This document shows positions 3,033-33,397 of a stretch of 64,000 nt of DNA, one piece after another. Source of the stretch: Actinomycetota bacterium (lineage in GTDB: Bacteria; Actinomycetota; Thermoleophilia; Solirubrobacterales; 70-9); contig JBKPHA010000029.1 in the NCBI GenBank assembly GCA_046729615.1, positions 12,742-76,741 on the forward strand, written 5' to 3'. The notes beneath the pieces were generated by a model. It saw nothing but the letters and a program-made list of their open reading frames with translations, had not been told where the DNA came from and searched no databases. The position numbers and the translations under genes are program-made. The number at the start of each line of letters is the position of its first letter. Position 1 is the first letter of the stretch.

Positions 3033-3677
3033 ATGGTCATCGCGATCGACGGCCCAGCGGGCGCCGGAAAGTCGACCGTCGCGAGAGGGGTGGCGGACGC
3101 TCTGGGCTTCACCTACCTCGACTCCGGCGCCATGTACAGATGCGTCGCTTTGGCCGCGCTGCGTGCGGGCGTGGACGTCGACCACGGACGGGCGGTGGGC
3201 GAGCTCGCGAGCGCAATCCGGATCGAGCCGGCGGACGGGCGCGTGCTGCTGGACGGCGAGGACGTCACGCAGGCGATCCGCGCGCCCGAGGTCACAGCGG
3301 CCGCGTCGCGAGTGTCCGTTCATCCGGCGGTGCGTCAGGCGATGGTCGCGCGGCAGCGTGCCCTGATCGAGTCCGGCGACTACGTCGCGGAGGGTCGCGA
3401 CATCGGCACCGTGGTCAGCCCGGACGCTCCGCTCAAGGTCTTCCTGACCGCCTCGCCCGAGGAGCGGGCATGGCGCCGCGCCGCCGAGACGGGGGAGGAG
3501 TTCGACGACGTGCTTGCGGCGCACTCGGGGCGAGACGCCCGGGACCGCGAGCGCGAGCATGGCGCACTGCGGCCGGCGAGCGACTCGGTCGAGATCGACA
3601 CGACCGGTCTCGAAGTCGGCGAGGCCACGTCGCGCGTCGTCGCACTCGCGCGCGAGCGCGGGCTGGTAGAGCGGTGA
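3033..3677 (+). CDS. cmk: cytidylate kinase
   Basis: MVIAIDGPAGAGKSTVAR P-loop, followed by LDSGAMYR. Confidence 0.9.
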   Translation: MVIAIDGPAGAGKSTVARGVADALGFTYLDSGAMYRCVALAALRAGVDVDHGRAVGELASAIRIEPADGRVLLDGEDVTQAIRAPEVTAAASRVSVHPAVRQAMVARQRALIESGDYVAEGRDIGTVVSPDAPLKVFLTASPEERAWRRAAETGEEFDDVLAAHSGRDARDREREHGALRPASDSVEIDTTGLEVGEATSRVVALARERGLVER

Positions 3678-3903
3678 CTCCTCCCACGACAGCACACCTC
3701 ACCCGCCTGCAAACCTTCACCAGCCGGCGCGGCGCCTCCGGCGCCGACGGCATCCATGCCTACTCGCTCGCGCACCTTTCAGGTGCGCCACGCTCACTGC
3801 GTCCTTGCCTGACTCGGGACGCGGGCTATCGCCTGCGCCACCGTTCGCCATCCATGGCTCACTGGCCGGCTGAGGCGCACTGCCGCGGAAGGAGGCACCG
3901 CTG
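3671..3903 (+). repeat. structured intercistronic repeat, copy A (diverged, with an insertion)
   Basis: Shares the core GCGCGGCGCCTNCGGCGCCGACGGCATCCNTGCCT..TCGCTCGCG-hairpin-CCACGCTCNCTGCGTCNTTGCCTG with 14667-14861 and the reverse complement of 32969-33163. Terminal inverted repeats are 3671-3684 and 3888-3901. Confidence 0.8.
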
Positions 3904-5268
3904 GTGAACGCCCGCGTACCGCAGATCGCGGTGGTCGGGTTTGCCAACGTGGGCAAGTCCACGCTCGTGAACCGGCTCGCGGGCGGCCGAGAGGCGGTGG
4001 TTCATCCCGACGCCGGCGTCACGCGCGACCGCAAGGCCGTGGAGACCGAGTGGAACGGGGTCACGTTCCAGCTCATCGACACAGGCGGAGTCGACCCCGC
4101 CGCCGAGGATTCTCTTTCGCGCGCGGTCCAGCGCCAGACGCGCGAGGCGATCTCGAACGCCGATGCCGCCGTGGTGGTGGTCGATGCCCGCGCCGGGCTG
4201 CGGCAGGGCGACGCCGAGGTCGCCAACATCCTGCGCCGCGCCGACATCCCCGTCTTCGTCGCGGCGAACAAGCTCGACGAGCCGGGCGACGATTACCTGG
4301 CGGCGGAGTTTCACCGGCTCGGGCTCGGCGATCCGTTTCCGGTCTCTGCCGCCCAGGGCCACGGCACCGGCGATCTCCTGGACCGCCTCGCGGACGTCGT
4401 TCGTGGCGCGTTTGGAGACGGCGCGGCGGAGTCCGACGCCGATGTCGTGGGGGTGGCCGTCATCGGACGGCCGAACGTGGGCAAGTCGTCGCTTGTCAAC
4501 CGGTTCCTCGGCTTGGAAAGGGTGATCGTCTCCGAGGTCGCGGGCACGACACGCGACGCGATCGACACCGAACTCGTGTTTAGCGACCGCCGGCTCATCC
4601 TCGTCGATACGGCTGGGCTTCGCCGCCGGACGAAGGTCGCAGGGACCGTCGCCTACTACGCGCAGCTGCGAGCCGAGCGGGCGGCCGAGCGCGCCGACGT
4701 GGCCCTGCTCGTGTGCGACGCCTCGGAGGGCGTCACCTCCGAGGACCTGCGGATCGCGGAGCTCGCGATGCGAACGGGCTGCGCGACGCTCGTCGCCCTC
4801 AACAAATGGGACATCGGCCGCACCGATCTGGCGGACGTGACGGCCCGGCTCGCCAAGCGCCTGCGCCAGCGGCCGCCGGTCATGACGTGTTCCGCCCGAA
4901 CCGGGCGGAATGTCACGAGGCTCCTGGAGCGCGCGATCGAGCTCGCCGAGAAGCGCGCGTCGCGGATCCCGACATCCGAGCTCAATCGCTTCGTCGGCGA
5001 GCTGAGCGCGAGCCGCCCGCCGCCGGCGAAGCGGGGCCGGCGGCTGCGGATCTACTATGCGGCCCAGGTGGAGCGCCGGCCGCCGCGCTTCGCCATCCAG
5101 GTCAACGACCGCCGGCTGATCTCGCGCGAGTGGGCGTACCACCTCGAGAACCGCCTGCGCGAGGAGTTCGGCTTCGAGGGTATCCCGCTGATCATCGACT
5201 TCGTGCCGCACTCGCGCCGGCAGCGCCCCCGCGCCGGGGCCGAAGGCAGCCGGTATAGGGGAGGCTAG
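3904..5268 (+). CDS. der: ribosome-associated GTPase Der/EngA (two GTPase domains plus KH-like domain)
   Basis: Two G1 motifs ([18 protein letters not shown]), two DTGG/DTAG motifs and NKLD/NKWD motifs. GTG start 8 nt after AAGGAGG. Confidence 0.9.
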
Positions 5269-13149: not shown

Positions 13150-14438
13150 GCCGCGACCACGTCGCGCCCGCCCGGCGCGCCGCCTACGAGGTCCTGCGGC
13201 GGGTCTTCGAGCACGGCGCCTGGGCCGACCGCGCGTTTGCGGCCGCCGCCGAGCGCCATCGCCTCGACGAGCGCGAGCGCAGCCAGGCGCAGCGCCTGGC
13301 TTATGGCGCCGTCCAGCGACGCGGAACCACCGACCGCCTTACCTCGGAGCTCGCGGGCCGGCCCGTGGCCCGGCTGGATCCGCCGGTGCTTGCCGCCCTG
13401 CGACTGGGGCTGTATGAGCTCCTGTTCTCCGATGCGACACCCGCGCATGCGGCGGTGGACCAGGCCGTCGAGTTGGCGAAGGGCGGGGGCGGCAAGCGGC
13501 GCCGCGCCGGCGCGTCGCTGGTGAACGCGGTGCTGCGTCGCGCCGCAGCGGGCGGCGACCTGCTCGCCGAGCTCGACGACTCAACGCCCGAGGGGGCGGC
13601 AACGCGTCATTCGTTTCCGGAGTGGCTCGCGCGGATGTGGTGGTCGGAGCTGGGCCCGGAGGATGCACGTTCCCTGATGGCGGCGCTGAACGAACCCGCC
13701 GAGACGGCGCTCCGGGTCAACACGCTGAAGGCCGACCGCGAGGCGCTCATGACGGAGCTCCGGGGTGGCGGCGACCGGATCGACAGGCACGGCTCCGGGC
13801 TGCTGGGGCCGCCGGAGGCCCTGGTCGTGACCGGGTCGCTGACTGAGCGATTGCGGGCCCGCATCGACGCTGGCGAGCTCGTGCCCCAGGCGCGCGGCTC
13901 GCAGGCGGTTGTCGCGGAGCTCGACCCCCACCCGGGCGAGCGGATCCTCGACCTCTGCTCGGCGCCCGGCATCAAGACGACCGCGATCGCCGCGCGAATG
14001 AGCGACTCGGGAGAGGTGGTCGCGGTCGATCGGGATCCCGGTCGAGCTGCGCAGCTCGGCGCGCTGTGCGCGCGCCTCGGCGTCACATGTGCGCGAGTCA
14101 TCGTCGCGGATGCCACGGAGGACGACCTGGGCGGCGGCTACGATCGCGTCCTCGTGGATCCACCGTGCTCCGATCTCGGGACGCTGGCCTCGCGGCCGGA
14201 CGCTCGCTGGCGCAAGTCGCCCGAGCTGATCGAGCGCCTGTCGGGGTTGCAGGCCAAGATCCTGCACCGGGCGCTGCAGGCCGTGAGGCCGGGCGGAACG
14301 CTCGTCTACTCCGTCTGCACTATCTCGCGGCGCGAGGGCCCAGATCAGGTCGAGTCGCTCCGAGCCCGATCCGTGCAGCTTCGCCCCGATCGCGACCGAA
14401 CCGACGGGTTCTTCATCGCCCGGCTGGAGCGCACCTAG
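13146..14438 (+). CDS. rsmB: 16S rRNA (cytosine967-C5)-methyltransferase (NusB-like N-domain plus SAM methyltransferase)
   Basis: Follows fmt. DLCSAPGIKT, VDPPCSDLGT and YSVCT motifs. Start taken at ATG 13146, overlapping the fmt stop. Confidence 0.85.
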   Translation: MSRDHVAPARRAAYEVLRRVFEHGAWADRAFAAAAERHRLDERERSQAQRLAYGAVQRRGTTDRLTSELAGRPVARLDPPVLAALRLGLYELLFSDATPAHAAVDQAVELAKGGGGKRRRAGASLVNAVLRRAAAGGDLLAELDDSTPEGAATRHSFPEWLARMWWSELGPEDARSLMAALNEPAETALRVNTLKADREALMTELRGGGDRIDRHGSGLLGPPEALVVTGSLTERLRARIDAGELVPQARGSQAVVAELDPHPGERILDLCSAPGIKTTAIAARMSDSGEVVAVDRDPGRAAQLGALCARLGVTCARVIVADATEDDLGGGYDRVLVDPPCSDLGTLASRPDARWRKSPELIERLSGLQAKILHRALQAVRPGGTLVYSVCTISRREGPDQVESLRARSVQLRPDRDRTDGFFIARLERT

Positions 14439-14669
14439 ATGGCGACCGGGGACGCCACGCTCAAGCGGCCCGCATGCCCCGGCTGTGGTGAGCCGTGGCT
14501 TCGGCCCACTCAGCTTCCTGGCCGCTACCGCTGCGTCTACTGCCTGCGGCGCTACGAGCTCGTCTCGCAGTGCCCGAACTGCGGCGAGCATCAGACGATC
14601 GTCCGCATGAGCACCTCCGAGGACCTGCTCTGCCAGCATTGCGGCCACTCGATGCTGCGCCCCGTTTAG
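14439..14669 (+). CDS. small double zinc-ribbon protein (four CxxC pairs), function unknown
   Basis: 76 aa with CPGC, CVYC, CPNC and CQHC. ATG directly abuts the rsmB TAG (TAGATG). Confidence 0.5.
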   Translation: MATGDATLKRPACPGCGEPWLRPTQLPGRYRCVYCLRRYELVSQCPNCGEHQTIVRMSTSEDLLCQHCGHSMLRPV

Positions 14670-14861
14670 GTGGTACCTCCGCCGACGCTGCACCGCAAAC
14701 GGCGGTCCCAGGCGCCGTCATGCTGCGCGGCGCCTACGGCGCCGACGGCATCCCTGCCTGGTCGCTCGCGTGGGATCATGCACGCCACGCTCCCTGCGTC
14801 GTTGCCTGACGGCGCCTGTGCCTCGCCGTTTACGGCACACCGTCACCGGAGGCACCACTAG
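14667..14861 (+). repeat. structured intercistronic repeat, copy B (best-preserved archetype)
   Basis: Fills the whole junction between the zinc-ribbon gene stop and the rpe ATG. TIRs at 14667-14687 / 14841-14861. Helices at 14697-14704/14824-14831 and 14709-14720/14807-14818. Hairpins at 14729-14743 and 14768-14785. Collinear with the reverse complement of 32969-33163. Confidence 0.85.
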
Positions 14862-15542
14862 ATGGCCGCACGGGACCTGTTCGCCCGGCATCAGGTCGTG
14901 CCGTCGATCCTGTCCGGGGACTTCGCCCGGCTCGGTGCTCAGGTCGCCGAGGTCATGACCGCCGGGGCCCGCGTCATCCACGTCGACGTGATGGACGGCC
15001 ATTTCGTCCCGCCGATAACGATGGGCCCTCTGATCGCGGCGTCGATCGCGGACCAGGTGCACGGCGCCGGCGGCGGCATCGACGTTCACCTGATGATCGA
15101 GCGTCCCGCCGAGCACGTGGCGGAGTTCGTCAAAGCCGGGGCGGACTGCATCACCGCGCATTTCGAGGCCGACCCGAACATCCACCGCACGCTCGGCGCC
15201 ATCCGCGACGCAGGCTGCCTGGCCGGCGTCGCGATCAATCCCGGGACGCCGGCCGCCGCCGTCCGCGAGCTGGATGGGCACGCGGACATCGTGCTCTGCA
15301 TGACGGTCAACCCCGGGTGGGGCGGCCAGTCATTCATCCCGTCGTCCCCGGGCAAGGTCCGGCGAATCCGCGACGCCGCGCCTTCGGCCGTGATCGAGGT
15401 GGACGGGGGGATTGACGCCGACACGGTGGGCAGCATTGCCGAGGCCGGCGCGACGCTGTTTGTCGCGGGCTCAGCCGTGTTCGGGACTCCCGACCCGGGC
15501 GAGGCATTCCGTCGCATCGCGGCGGCCGCTGCCCCGGGGTAG
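14862..15542 (+). CDS. rpe: ribulose-phosphate 3-epimerase
   Basis: PSILSGDF, HVDVMDGHFVP, MTVNPGWGGQ and VDGGI motifs. Confidence 0.9.
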   Translation: MAARDLFARHQVVPSILSGDFARLGAQVAEVMTAGARVIHVDVMDGHFVPPITMGPLIAASIADQVHGAGGGIDVHLMIERPAEHVAEFVKAGADCITAHFEADPNIHRTLGAIRDAGCLAGVAINPGTPAAAVRELDGHADIVLCMTVNPGWGGQSFIPSSPGKVRRIRDAAPSAVIEVDGGIDADTVGSIAEAGATLFVAGSAVFGTPDPGEAFRRIAAAAAPG

Positions 15543-15570
15543 GCCGGACCGTGCCGGACCGGGAAGATCG

Positions 15571-16481
15571 CTCGGCTACTCGTTCCTCTGGACGCTGGAC
15601 ACGATCGCGACGATCGGGTCGGTCGGGATGCCCCGGGACACCGTCGCGCGCATCCTGGTCGTGTTCCTGATCATCTTCGGCGTCGGTACGCTCTTCTACG
15701 CGCTCGTCACGGTCACGGAGTTCCTCGTCGCGGGCCGGCTCAGCGGGCTCCTGGCTGACCGGCGCATGCAGCGGATGATCGACTCGCTCTCCGACCATGA
15801 CTCATCTGCGGCTTCGGCCCGCGTAGGTCGCCAGGTGGCCCGCGACCTGCGGGTGACGGGCCAGCCATTCGTCGTCGTCGACGACAACCCCGACAACCGC
15901 GAGATCGCGGAGGAGATGGACGCCCCCTTCCGGGAGGGACCCCCACGGAGGACGCCGTGCTGCGGCAGGCCGGGATCGGGCGGGCAAGGTCGGTGCTCGC
16001 CTGCAAGGACTCCGACGCCGAGAACATCTTCGCGACGCTCACCGCGCGCGAGCTCCGCCCCGACATCACGATCGTCGCTCGCGCCAGCGTCGAGGACTCG
16101 GAGAAAAAGCTCAAGCGTGCCAGCGCGGATCGGGTGATCTCGCCGTACAAGGCGAGCGGCGCCGAGATGGCACGTTTGGCGCTCCATCCGCAGGTCGCGG
16201 GGGTCGTCGATGTCGTGCCGGAGTACCGGATGGAGGAGATCGAGGTGATGAGCGGCTGCGCCGGCGCCGGTAAGCGCATCCGCGACCTCCGCGGCACGAC
16301 GGCGATCGTCGCGCTGCGACGCAGCGACGGCACCATCGAGCCGCAGCCCGCGGGCGAGCGCGAGCTCGAGCCGGGCGACGTCCTCGTCGCGATGGGCACG
16401 CGTGAGGCGATGGACCGCCTGGAGGAGACCTTCCAGAGCCGGGCGGCCCGCTCCACCGACGTGCGCCGGCTGAGGCCCTAA
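15571..16481 (+). pseudogene. decayed RCK/TrkA-domain potassium channel gene (N-terminally truncated, frameshifted)
   Basis: Frame 1 reads a pore-like segment (TLDTIATIGSVGMP), one TM helix and an RCK N-lobe. LICGFG of the GxGxxG motif is only readable in another frame at 15801-15818. The frame changes again near 15936-15941 into ORF 15957..16481 (RCK C-lobe). There is no M1 helix and no start codon upstream of the pore segment. Confidence 0.6.
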
Positions 16482-31840: not shown

Positions 31841-32383
31841 CTACTCGTAGACGGCCCGGATCACCGCGAAGTCCCCCTTCTCCCACACAATCTCCCCGCC
31901 GCACCATTCGGCTTGATCGGAGGCGCGCGATGGCATGTCCACGCCTGGCTCGAGCTCGACCGTCTGCGGCTCGACCAAAACGACGTCACCGAGCACAAGG
32001 GATCGGGATTGCTCGCGAACTCGCCGAAACAGATGCTTCTTCGCCGGACCATCCAGATGGTGAACGGCCAAGACGGAGATGACCAGATCCCACGGTCCGT
32101 CTGGTAGCGGGTCCTGCATCCGCGCGAGCCGGACCTCGATGGCGTGCTCGCGTGCCTTGAAGACCATGTCAGGCTGGGAGTCGAGGCCGGTGACGTCGGC
32201 GCCCGGGTAGCGCTCGAGCAGGCGCCGGGTCGTCTCGCCGGTTCCGACGCCGAGCTCCAGGACCCGGGTGGGCGCGAACGGGATCGCGTCGATCGTCGCC
32301 TCCTGAAGCTCGTCGTAAAGCGGAACCTCGGCCCGGATCTCGTCCAGGTAGGTCTCCGGATCCATGTGGAATTGCGCGCTCAC
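31841..32383 (-). CDS. class I SAM-dependent methyltransferase
   Basis: VLELGVGTGETTRRLLERYPGADVTGLDSQPDMV (motif I and post-I). Confidence 0.7.
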   Translation of the reverse strand: MSAQFHMDPETYLDEIRAEVPLYDELQEATIDAIPFAPTRVLELGVGTGETTRRLLERYPGADVTGLDSQPDMVFKAREHAIEVRLARMQDPLPDGPWDLVISVLAVHHLDGPAKKHLFRRVREQSRSLVLGDVVLVEPQTVELEPGVDMPSRASDQAEWCGGEIVWEKGDFAVIRAVYE

Positions 32384-32426
32384 AGCCGTCCTCGCAGGCG
32401 AGATCTACCGCTACCCTCGAGTCGGG

Positions 32427-32951
32427 ATGGCAGCGGGATATCACAGCGTCGATCTTTCGCGGCTCGCGCTCCGGCCCGGCTCGGGCCGGCGCCTCGACCT
32501 GGGCGTGGATCCGGGCGAGCTCGACCTCGGCGGGCAGCGCTATTCCGTGCGCGGCCCGACTGTCGATGCGCGGCTCGACCTGTCGCGCACCGCGGCCGGG
32601 TACGCGATCCGAATGCGGTTCGTCGCGCACGTCGACGGGCCCTGCATGCGCTGTCTTGCGGACGCCGACGTGCCGGTCGAGATCGACGTCCGGGAGGTCG
32701 ACCAGCCTCGCACGGCCGACGAGGAGCTCATGAGTCCCTACATCAACGAGGACGAGCTCGAGCTGGCGCGCTGGGCCCACGACGCGCTCGCCCTCGCGTT
32801 GCCGTTCCAGCTGCTTTGCCGCCCGGATTGCAGGGGGCTATGCCCGGTCTGCGGCATCTCGCTGAACGACGTCGATCCCGCCGAGCACCGCCACGAGGCC
32901 GAGCCCGATCCGCGCTGGGCGGAGCTGCGCGAGCTGAAGCTCGATCAGTGA
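32427..32951 (+). CDS. yceD: YceD/DUF177 family protein (23S rRNA accumulation protein)
   Basis: CMRCLADADVPVEIDV and LCRPDCRGLCPVCGISLN motifs. Canonical position upstream of rpmF. Start chosen at ATG 32427. Confidence 0.8.
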   Translation: MAAGYHSVDLSRLALRPGSGRRLDLGVDPGELDLGGQRYSVRGPTVDARLDLSRTAAGYAIRMRFVAHVDGPCMRCLADADVPVEIDVREVDQPRTADEELMSPYINEDELELARWAHDALALALPFQLLCRPDCRGLCPVCGISLNDVDPAEHRHEAEPDPRWAELRELKLDQ

Positions 32952-32968
32952 TCCCCCGACCCTCCGGC

Positions 32969-33163
32969 CTAGCGGTGCGTCGCACGACGGTGTGCCGGAA
33001 ACGTCGAGGTCCAGGCGTCACCAGGCAAGGACGCAGGGAGATTGGCGTGCATGACTGCACGCGAGCGACCAGGCATGGATGCCGTCGGCGCCGTAGGCGC
33101 CGCGCAGCATTGCGACGTCTGGGGCCGCCGTTTCGGGTGCAACGTCGTGTGACGTACCGCTAG
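32969..33163 (-). repeat. structured intercistronic repeat, copy C (opposite orientation to flanking genes)
   Basis: The reverse complement is collinear with copy B over its full length. 21-nt TIRs at 33143-33163 / 32969-32989 with 2 mismatches. Hairpins at 33087-33101 and 33045-33062. Both ends lie in CTAG. Confidence 0.85.
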
Positions 33164-33175
33164 CCTTACGCCCTT

Positions 33176-33397
33176 ATGGCCGTCCCCAAGAAGAGAACCT
33201 CGCGCGCGCGCCGCGACAAGCGGCGGGCCACGCACAAGGTCAGCGCGCCCCGCGTCAACGAGTGCCCGCGCTGCCACAGCCCGCGACTGCCGCACCGCGT
33301 GTGCCCGACCTGCGGCACCTACTCGGGCCGCGAAGTGATCGAGCACGAGATCCGCGAGGCGGCACCCCGGGAGACGGCTGCCGGCCCGGAGGAGTAG
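33176..33397 (+). CDS. rpmF: 50S ribosomal protein L32 (with C-terminal extension)
   Basis: MAVPKKRTSRARRDKRRA...CPRCHSPRLPHRVCPTCG. Confidence 0.9.
   Translation: MAVPKKRTSRARRDKRRATHKVSAPRVNECPRCHSPRLPHRVCPTCGTYSGREVIEHEIREAAPRETAAGPEE

Follow-up and report, generated by a model that had tools for sequence, protein, structure and literature searches.

A probable family of small palindromic insertion elements at operon junctions of Solirubrobacterales

Results

We examined a structured repeat in a 64-kb stretch of DNA from an actinobacterium of the order Solirubrobacterales (contig JBKPHA010000029.1), here called the window, which has a G+C content of 71% and to which all coordinates refer unless another locus is named. 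The repeat, which we call copy B, occupies 14667-14861 on the plus strand, in the same sense as its neighbours, and fills the gap between the TAG stop codon of a zinc-ribbon open reading frame (ORF; 14439-14669) and the ATG start codon of rpe at 14862, so that the claim of the original prediction that it spans this stop/start junction exactly was borne out. The body of the element (14669-14858) is flanked by a TA dinucleotide on each side (14667-14668 and 14859-14860), where TTAG and CTAG overlap the left and right end respectively. It consists of a left arm (14669-14724, plus strand) that includes the terminal inverted repeat GGTGGTACCTCC, a conserved core (14725-14808, plus strand) and a right arm (14809-14858, plus strand), the two arms being paired with each other according to the minimum free energy (MFE) fold and to the counts of compensatory pairs. 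The core contains hairpin 1 (14729-14743), the motif GGCA-TCCC-TGCC, TCGCTCGCG, hairpin 2 (14768-14785) and CCACGCTCCCTGCGTCGTTGCCTG, and the right arm carries a GGAGG motif (14848-14852), 9 nt before the rpe ATG, that is paired with CCTCC in the left arm. The two genes are bridged by a mini-ORF of 63 codons (14670-14861, plus strand), whose GTG start directly follows the zinc-ribbon TAG and whose TAG stop directly precedes the rpe ATG. The G+C content at its three codon positions (0.68/0.71/0.76) is not coding-like, and a scan of copy B for promoters and terminators found none.

Two further copies lie in the window, and a hidden Markov model (HMM) built from nine copies detected no other there (nhmmer, E < 1), in agreement with the three copies counted in the original prediction. 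Copy C (32969-33163, minus strand) belongs, like copy B, to a subfamily that we call type I, and is inverted relative to its plus-strand neighbours, a yceD-like gene (32364-32951) and rpmF (33176-33397). Its predicted collinearity with copy B held, the reverse complement aligning without gaps at 83% identity over 190 nt (E = 9e-54). CTAG stands at both of its ends (32969 and 33160), and its bridging mini-ORF of 71 codons (32948-33163, on the plus strand, that of the host genes) starts at a GTG that overlaps the yceD TGA (GTGA) and stops at the element's own terminal TAG, 12 nt before the rpmF ATG. Copy A (3671-3907, plus strand), of type II, lies in sense between cmk (3033-3677) and der (3904-5268). 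Its match to copy B, described from the start as looser, is confined to the core (3727-3813; 83% identity over 87 nt, E = 1e-19), and its right half has an additional segment of about 45 nt. The left terminal repeat of copy A contains the stop codon of cmk (TGA, 3675-3677), AGGAGG (3890-3895) precedes the der GTG by 8 nt, and a mini-ORF of 77 codons (3674-3907, plus strand) overlaps the genes on both sides, its GTG with the cmk TGA (GTGA) and its TGA with the der GTG (GTGA). Since there are two subfamilies, with arm sequences that vary widely around a constant core, copy B is not the archetype for which it had been taken.

The copies are dispersed insertions in unrelated operons, and their presence or absence differs between close relatives. 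That they are insertions follows from reciprocal filled and empty sites in a relative, L009, which is collinear with 13946-16439 of the window at 90-93% identity. Where the window holds copy B, the zinc-ribbon/rpe junction of L009 consists only of TAACTAGCG (CTC TAA CTAGCG ATG), and L009 has an element at the rsmB/zinc-ribbon junction, where the window reads ACC TAG ATG (14433-14441, plus strand), an unoccupied junction of the target type. Twelve more related loci (L012-L023, about 220 kb in total), with zinc-ribbon proteins 80-89% identical to that of the window, hold no copy, and their junctions are compact, with TGAACGATG or TGATG between the zinc-ribbon gene and rpe and GTGA or ATGA between cmk and der.

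The predicted existence of an unnamed dispersed repeat family was confirmed by copies found outside the window in genome, metagenome and predicted-protein searches. We count nine independent insertions in different operons and in both orientations, with elements of 190-250 bp. Besides the three in the window (cmk/der for A, zinc-ribbon/rpe for B and yceD/rpmF for C), exact-pattern scans with the invariant core gave copies at atpA/atpG (L001), after a hisC-like gene (L002) and at rsmB/zinc-ribbon (L009). Later copies were sought by searching predicted proteins with a profile of one translated element frame, which through spurious ORF calls gave those between a glycosyltransferase gene and metE (L026-L030), between an unknown gene and an ECF sigma factor gene (L031) and between rplX and rplE (L032), as well as P0123, an orthologue of the atpA/atpG copy that was read from the protein. 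Type I comprises B, C, L026, L009 and L031, and type II comprises A, L001, L002 and L032. The sense orientation relative to the host genes is found in A, B, L001, L002, L026, L031 and L032, the antisense orientation in C and L009. L009 (2097-2160) and L031 (627-690) share an internal insertion of 53 nt that forms an extra hairpin (GCCAGCC...GGCTGGC), suggesting that this variant has itself propagated. Both come from one metagenome project (Ga0058697) and have different gene contexts, their arms being 89% and their cores 96.5% identical.

All six copies that were folded form a rod in which two arms of about 55 nt close a central domain. Between its arms every copy has a conserved core of about 85 nt. 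For A, B and C the folding energies were -112, -111.9 and -103.3 kcal/mol (z = -3.7, -6.3 and -6.7), and none of the 200 shuffles made for each copy folded as stably, which upholds the rod fold that had been proposed for them. Its parts were recovered as well: an 8-bp helix pairs 14697-14704 (AAACGGCG) with 14824-14831 (CGCCGTTT), a 12-bp helix pairs 14709-14720 (CAGGCGCCGTCA) with 14807-14818 (TGACGGCGCCTG), and both hairpins are present, that at 14729-14743 (GGCGCC-TAC-GGCGCC) and that at 14768-14785. The claimed terminal inverted repeats exist too, though they are imperfect and offset by one base.

Aligned, the five type-I copies have 69 pairs, with 91.9% of the cells paired. Changes on both sides occur in 15 of these pairs, against 7.2 ± 1.8 in shuffles, not one of 500 shuffles reaching 15, and controls in which the partner columns were slid gave 0-3; the claim that paired positions change together is therefore well founded. 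The pairs changed on both sides are located nearly all in the arms, and in the core, hairpin 2 switches between copies from GCG-TG...CA-CGC to GCG-CA...TG-CGC. Nearly all compensatory changes lead from one Watson-Crick pair to another, and on the mRNA strand G-U pairs are not favoured over A-C mismatches, the counts being small. Within type I, identity is 91% in the core and 74% in the arms, and about 45 consecutive core positions are invariant among the first six copies. The outermost arm sequences of L002 (AGTGCTCGCC), L026 (GGTGGGGCGTAAC) and L032 (GATGACCACCTCC) are essentially unlike those of A or B (GGTGGTACCTCC in the latter), with complementarity kept. Hairpin 1 is absent from L032 and from a copy read in the protein P0128, so the universally retained block is TCGCTCGCG-hairpin 2-CCACGCTCNCTGCGTCC. 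A search of the whole window at the Rfam gathering thresholds gave no match, and a search of B, A, L009, L031 and L032 at E up to 10 gave chance-level matches only; the original remark that the element resembles no named RNA family was right in that no credible match appeared in the window or in these five copies.

TA stands exactly outside both terminal-repeat ends in four of the nine copies, namely B (TT-TA-[GGTGG...CCAC]-TA-G), C (C-TA-[GCGG...CCGC]-TA-G), L031 (C-TA-[GTGA...CCAC]-TA-G) and L032 (G-TA-[GATGA...TCATC]-TA-A). It is found on one side only in L009, L001 and L002, and A and L026 do not fit the pattern. TA makes up 0.93% of the dinucleotides of the window, and of the 32 CTAG sites there, three are at the ends of elements. 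Excision in silico of the element together with one TA leaves ordinary stop/start junctions, GTT TAG ATG for copy B and GAG TAATGG for L032. A 5-bp duplication (TGGTA/TGGTG) was considered for copy A and ruled out, since the reconstructed junction would have no cmk stop codon.

Each of the seven copies flanked by co-directional genes at close spacing has a stop-free mini-ORF in the direction of the host genes, regardless of the orientation or frame of the element. In addition to those of the window, L001 has one of 65 codons (ATGA overlap with the upstream stop, TAG overlapping an ATA downstream), L009 one of 79 codons (GTG or ATG overlapping the rsmB stop, TAG adjacent to the downstream ATG), L031 one of 88 codons (TAGTG overlap upstream, GTGA overlap downstream) and L032 one of 63 codons (TAG adjacent to ATG upstream, TAATG overlap downstream). 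The frame used varies between copies, even within a subfamily, and lies on the opposite strand of the element in the two inverted copies; the difference in frame between A and B/C, already pointed out in the original prediction, was confirmed. The G+C content at the three codon positions is flat (about 0.68/0.69/0.72). Together with the differing frames this means that translatability is kept and not a peptide, and the hypothesis of a conserved peptide was rejected on both grounds. With length-preserving shuffles of each intercistronic region, the joint probability of the bridging ORFs is about 1e-8. A conservative estimate is about 1e-5, the probability of an open frame (0.26-0.64) multiplied by one third for the phase giving 7.7e-5 for five of those copies whose detection did not depend on ORFs, and a sixth copy lowering it further. 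The P0123 orthologue keeps the 65-codon ORF despite 10 amino-acid changes, nine of them in the arms, and one pair of these (N13S and V55A) would, to judge from the codons, be a compensatory change of A-T to G-C.

Read outward, the CCTCC of the terminal repeat becomes GGAGG at each end of the element. Five of the seven junction copies have this motif 4-10 nt ahead of the downstream start (B 9, A 8 as AGGAGG, L001 4, L032 10 and L009 9 as GAGG), and in the MFE folds it is paired with CCTCC of the opposite arm. In L001 (860-880), none of ATG, GTG and TTG occurs at the junction in the atpG frame (…ATQKEVKNRISSVKNI…), where the element is followed by an ATA codon that overlaps the TAG of the mini-ORF. 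Read from these codons, atpG would start either at the ATA behind AAGGAGG or inside the right arm. On an orthologous atpA/atpG contig, the gene caller put the atpG start 25 nt inside the element.

Several observations concern the surroundings of the copies and the limits of the family. The zinc-ribbon gene (14439-14669, 76 amino acids), between rsmB and rpe, is conserved across Solirubrobacterales, and those of its 596 homologues (E <= 1e-5) that are named come from this order; the source annotations of the gene disagree ('ribosomal protein S27E', 'primosomal protein N'' and 'DUF983'). In L026 (5375-5390) the left arm of the element holds the TAA stop codon of the upstream glycosyltransferase gene, and the last residues of the protein are encoded by the repeat, as is the end of the upstream gene in cmk (3671-3677) and in rsmB of L009. 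L002 (306-2965) is syntenic with 8-2664 of the window at 76% identity, and its element maps about 1.1 kb before the first base of the window. About 1.4 kb downstream of copy C lies the position orthologous to rnc, the RNase III gene (L033 4555-5286), in the same rpmF-plsX-acpP-rnc string; a double-stranded RNA rod of about 55 bp would be a natural RNase III substrate, but this neighbourhood is probably a coincidence of operon order.

The element family is rare in the scanned collections. The nine-copy HMM found no extra copies in 436 kb, tandem arrays of the element are not present, the copies being single units, and blastn of copy B against plasmids and of copy A against phages gave no match. 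An exact look-up of the spurious element ORFs returned singleton clusters only. The pattern scans also hit genome contigs L003-L005, by chance within coding sequence, and metagenome contigs L010 and L011 and viral contigs L024 and L025, likewise chance matches in coding DNA. P0127/L036, from a protein search with the +1 frame, was rejected as a family member, having similarity at the peptide level only and no nucleotide homology; L036 (53-494) is a tandem repeat with a period of 156-159 nt, 2.6-2.8 copies and about 50% G+C, whose translation mimics the CCAAPTAPTA peptide of the element. Contigs L006-8 and L033-35 belong to the same species (99.3-99.8% identical), hold the same copies and are uninformative on evolution. 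Assemblers typically break contigs at repeats, and two metagenome contigs (L030 and L034) start, at position 1, inside an element copy, so those genomes probably hold further copies. P0128 is a 6-phosphogluconate-dehydrogenase-like protein with a 50-aa N-terminal extension that is a translated element copy lacking hairpin 1. To judge from this translation, a further insertion site lies directly upstream of a gnd-like gene, where the repeat has caused a misannotation.

Discussion

[quoted passage not shown] Typical traits of bacterial MITEs are terminal inverted repeats, TA at the termini, a long stem-loop and contiguous ORFs (Delihas 2008, PMC2229807). The family described here stays below about 300 bp and lacks coding capacity, has terminal inverted repeats whose arms are paired in every copy over about 55 nt per side, and occurs as dispersed copies that are present in some related genomes and absent from others. 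Members of the IS630 family target TA, which is duplicated on insertion, with CTAG preferred by IS630 (PMC2170065); the TA flanks suggest an insertion of the IS630/Tc1 type into the TA of a stop codon. The element would be placed in a TA dinucleotide by a TA-specific enzyme, such as a DDE transposase of the IS630/Tc1-mariner type. At 71% G+C, the TA sites where an insertion can be tolerated would lie mainly in stop codons and short intercistronic spacers, and the direction of surviving insertions to such places would explain why copy B exactly fills its junction. Most copies have a body that begins with G, so that the left TA and this G would provide a TAG stop codon for the upstream gene.

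Once inserted, the element may be bridged by a translational relay. Ribosomes ending the upstream gene would re-initiate at the overlapping or adjacent start of the mini-ORF and, while translating it, would melt a rod of about -100 kcal/mol that otherwise sequesters GGAGG. Termination would follow at the downstream start or beside it, and the GGAGG, now unmasked, would aid initiation there. Insertions that allow such a relay would be tolerated in essential operons and others would be lost. We infer, with statistical support, that the copies persist at junctions because polycistronic translation is not broken; translation of the mini-ORF and its coupling to the flanking genes are what we propose from the arrangement of starts, stops and motifs. 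The peptide itself is irrelevant, as its frame differs between copies and its codon composition is flat. The conserved core might serve the mobilising enzyme as a recognition module, or be a site for a host factor or for RNA processing. A more ambitious version, which we hold only tentatively and consider somewhat doubtful, is that of an 'operon-safe' mobile insert with a complete relay in both orientations, made up of the TAG-completing G, stop-free frames on both strands and a rod-masked GGAGG in each terminal repeat, with the core of 55-85 nt as a separate module under purifying selection and with its persistence coupled to an obligatory translational coupling of the host genes.

A number of points weigh against the interpretation as MITE-like inserts with a bridging ORF. 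The core is better conserved than the arms, the reverse of a plain MITE pattern, and the highly divergent outermost arms are awkward for sequence-specific recognition of terminal repeats, for which recognition of structure, or old and decayed copies, would be a better fit. No autonomous insertion sequence, transposase or solo terminal repeat with matching ends was found in the window or at the loci examined. A, L001, L002, L009 and L026 lack TA at one end or at both, a stop codon confounds the reading of the left TA, and the TA-flank duplication would be read from the sequences of the ends and not from a near-isogenic pair of filled and empty sites. As to the relay, long open frames are common at 71% G+C (0.26-0.64 per frame), the criteria for bridging were set after the data had been seen, and ascertainment is biased for L032 and P0123, whose discovery depended on called ORFs. 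Moreover, copy C has lost GGAGG from both arms through paired changes, and rpmF downstream of it has no visible Shine-Dalgarno sequence.

That the best-conserved part is internal and includes the hairpin GGCGCC-TAC-GGCGCC would suit another kind of mobile element, one recognised in single-stranded form like a REPIN with its RAYT or a PATE of IS200/IS605, where an HUH-type enzyme reads an internal hairpin and the rod and the arms need only pair. Arms that fall to 74% identity and yet keep their Watson-Crick pairing at about 92%, changes on both sides being many and G-U pairs few, point the same way, as do the outermost arms of L002 and L026, unrelated to B or A and still complementary. To our knowledge, however, REPINs and IS200/IS605 derivatives make no target duplications, and four copies have TA exactly at both ends. 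In addition, hairpin 1 is missing from L032 and the P0128 copy and hence dispensable in resident copies, the copy number is apparently low, and no RAYT or TnpA gene was noticed in the sequence examined, in which no systematic search for them was made; on the whole we consider such an element unlikely. The same difference between core and arms (91% against 74% across copies from different genomes) may also be read as the mark of a host function, that of a structured RNA module in operon mRNAs that would serve RNase III processing or stability, or would insulate or couple translation, its core being functional and its spread secondary. Such a module would agree with the L001/P0123 orthologues, where nine of ten changes lie outside the core, with the covariation of hairpin 2 and the arms, with the very stable folding and with the transcribed operon context of every copy. 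It is hard to reconcile with the mixed orientation, since C and L009, a third of the junction copies, are antisense and would present a strand-specific motif as its complement, and such a module would let us expect an excess of G-U pairs over A-C mismatches on the mRNA strand, which the few counts do not have. Close relatives lack the element at the same junctions and Rfam offers no credible match for the window or the five copies searched, and we judge a primary role of this kind to be improbable.

As a further alternative, the repeat may be a neutral relic. Its apparent covariation would stem from correction of the palindrome at the DNA level, by mismatch repair or gene conversion between the arms in a hairpin or cruciform, and its bridging ORFs from a survivorship filter. 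Compensatory changes almost all from Watson-Crick to Watson-Crick and without strand bias are what such correction would leave, open frames are cheap at 71% G+C, and in copy B the unused antisense frames hold stops while the frame in use is open. This account, which we think very unlikely, explains neither the conservation of the core nor why five of the seven junction copies, in both orientations, have GGAGG no more than 10 nt ahead of the downstream start, and its survivorship filter is compatible with our interpretation and not opposed to it.

If the elements are indeed tolerated mobile inserts, they add a mobile-element family to Thermoleophilia, a largely uncultured class for which a literature search for MITEs found no description. 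They also provide, as inferred from sequence, a natural example of insertion into essential operons (ribosomal protein, ATP synthase, cmk-der and rpmF-plsX) without polar effects. The relay, if true, would give high-G+C bacteria a natural 'bicistronic adaptor' of compact form and would be a second, structurally different case, beside MIRUs (interspersed repetitive units of mycobacteria), of repeats exploiting termination-reinitiation, and a core conserved above the termini could point to the mobilisation machinery. At the same time, metagenome assemblies are broken by these repeats, which gene callers wrongly annotate as N-terminal extensions or small 'hypothetical proteins'.

Among known systems, IS630/Tc1-mariner elements insert at TA, and in our family TA flanks, with CTAG or TTAG overlapping them, stand at the ends of some copies, whereas its terminal sequences are too variable between copies for a single cognate transposase. 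REPINs resemble it in being hairpin-forming and extragenic and in keeping their pairing by compensatory change. They are shorter, very numerous, made without target duplications and associated with RAYT genes. Short length, high number and a RAYT gene are not seen for the element, the last without a systematic search, and the TA flanks argue against a REPIN. MIRUs, as summarised from Supply et al. 1997 in PMC12548453, are intercistronic operon repeats with an internal ORF whose start and stop overlap the flanking genes, and this is thought to lessen the cost of insertion. As far as that summary describes them, our element shares with MIRUs an internal ORF with start and stop overlapping or near the flanking genes, found in all seven junction copies. 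MIRUs are direct or tandem units of 40-100 bp in mycobacterial operons, not long palindromes, and are oriented with the host genes. Our element, in contrast, is a single inverted-repeat rod of 190-250 bp in either orientation, with TA flanks and no tandem array, in a Solirubrobacterales host; by analogy, we would call it MIRU-like in its coupling logic and not a member of the MIRU family.

A further likeness, in described traits and not in sequence, is to the Correia/NEMIS, ERIC and YPAL MITEs, which like the element are small, dispersed and non-coding, have terminal inverted repeats with TA termini, a long stem-loop and contiguous ORFs, and lie in transcribed intergenic regions. Correia elements occur in forms of 107 and 155 bp, with an internal segment dimorphism of about 50 bp (PMC2229807), and this size dimorphism resembles the 53-nt insert of L009 and L031. 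Unlike these MITEs, the element has a host in the actinobacterial class Thermoleophilia, an apparently low copy number, a core above its termini in conservation, a bridging ORF in both orientations and a GGAGG in each terminal repeat. If confirmed, the bidirectional design of the relay and a core better conserved than the termini would be the traits that make this family unusual.

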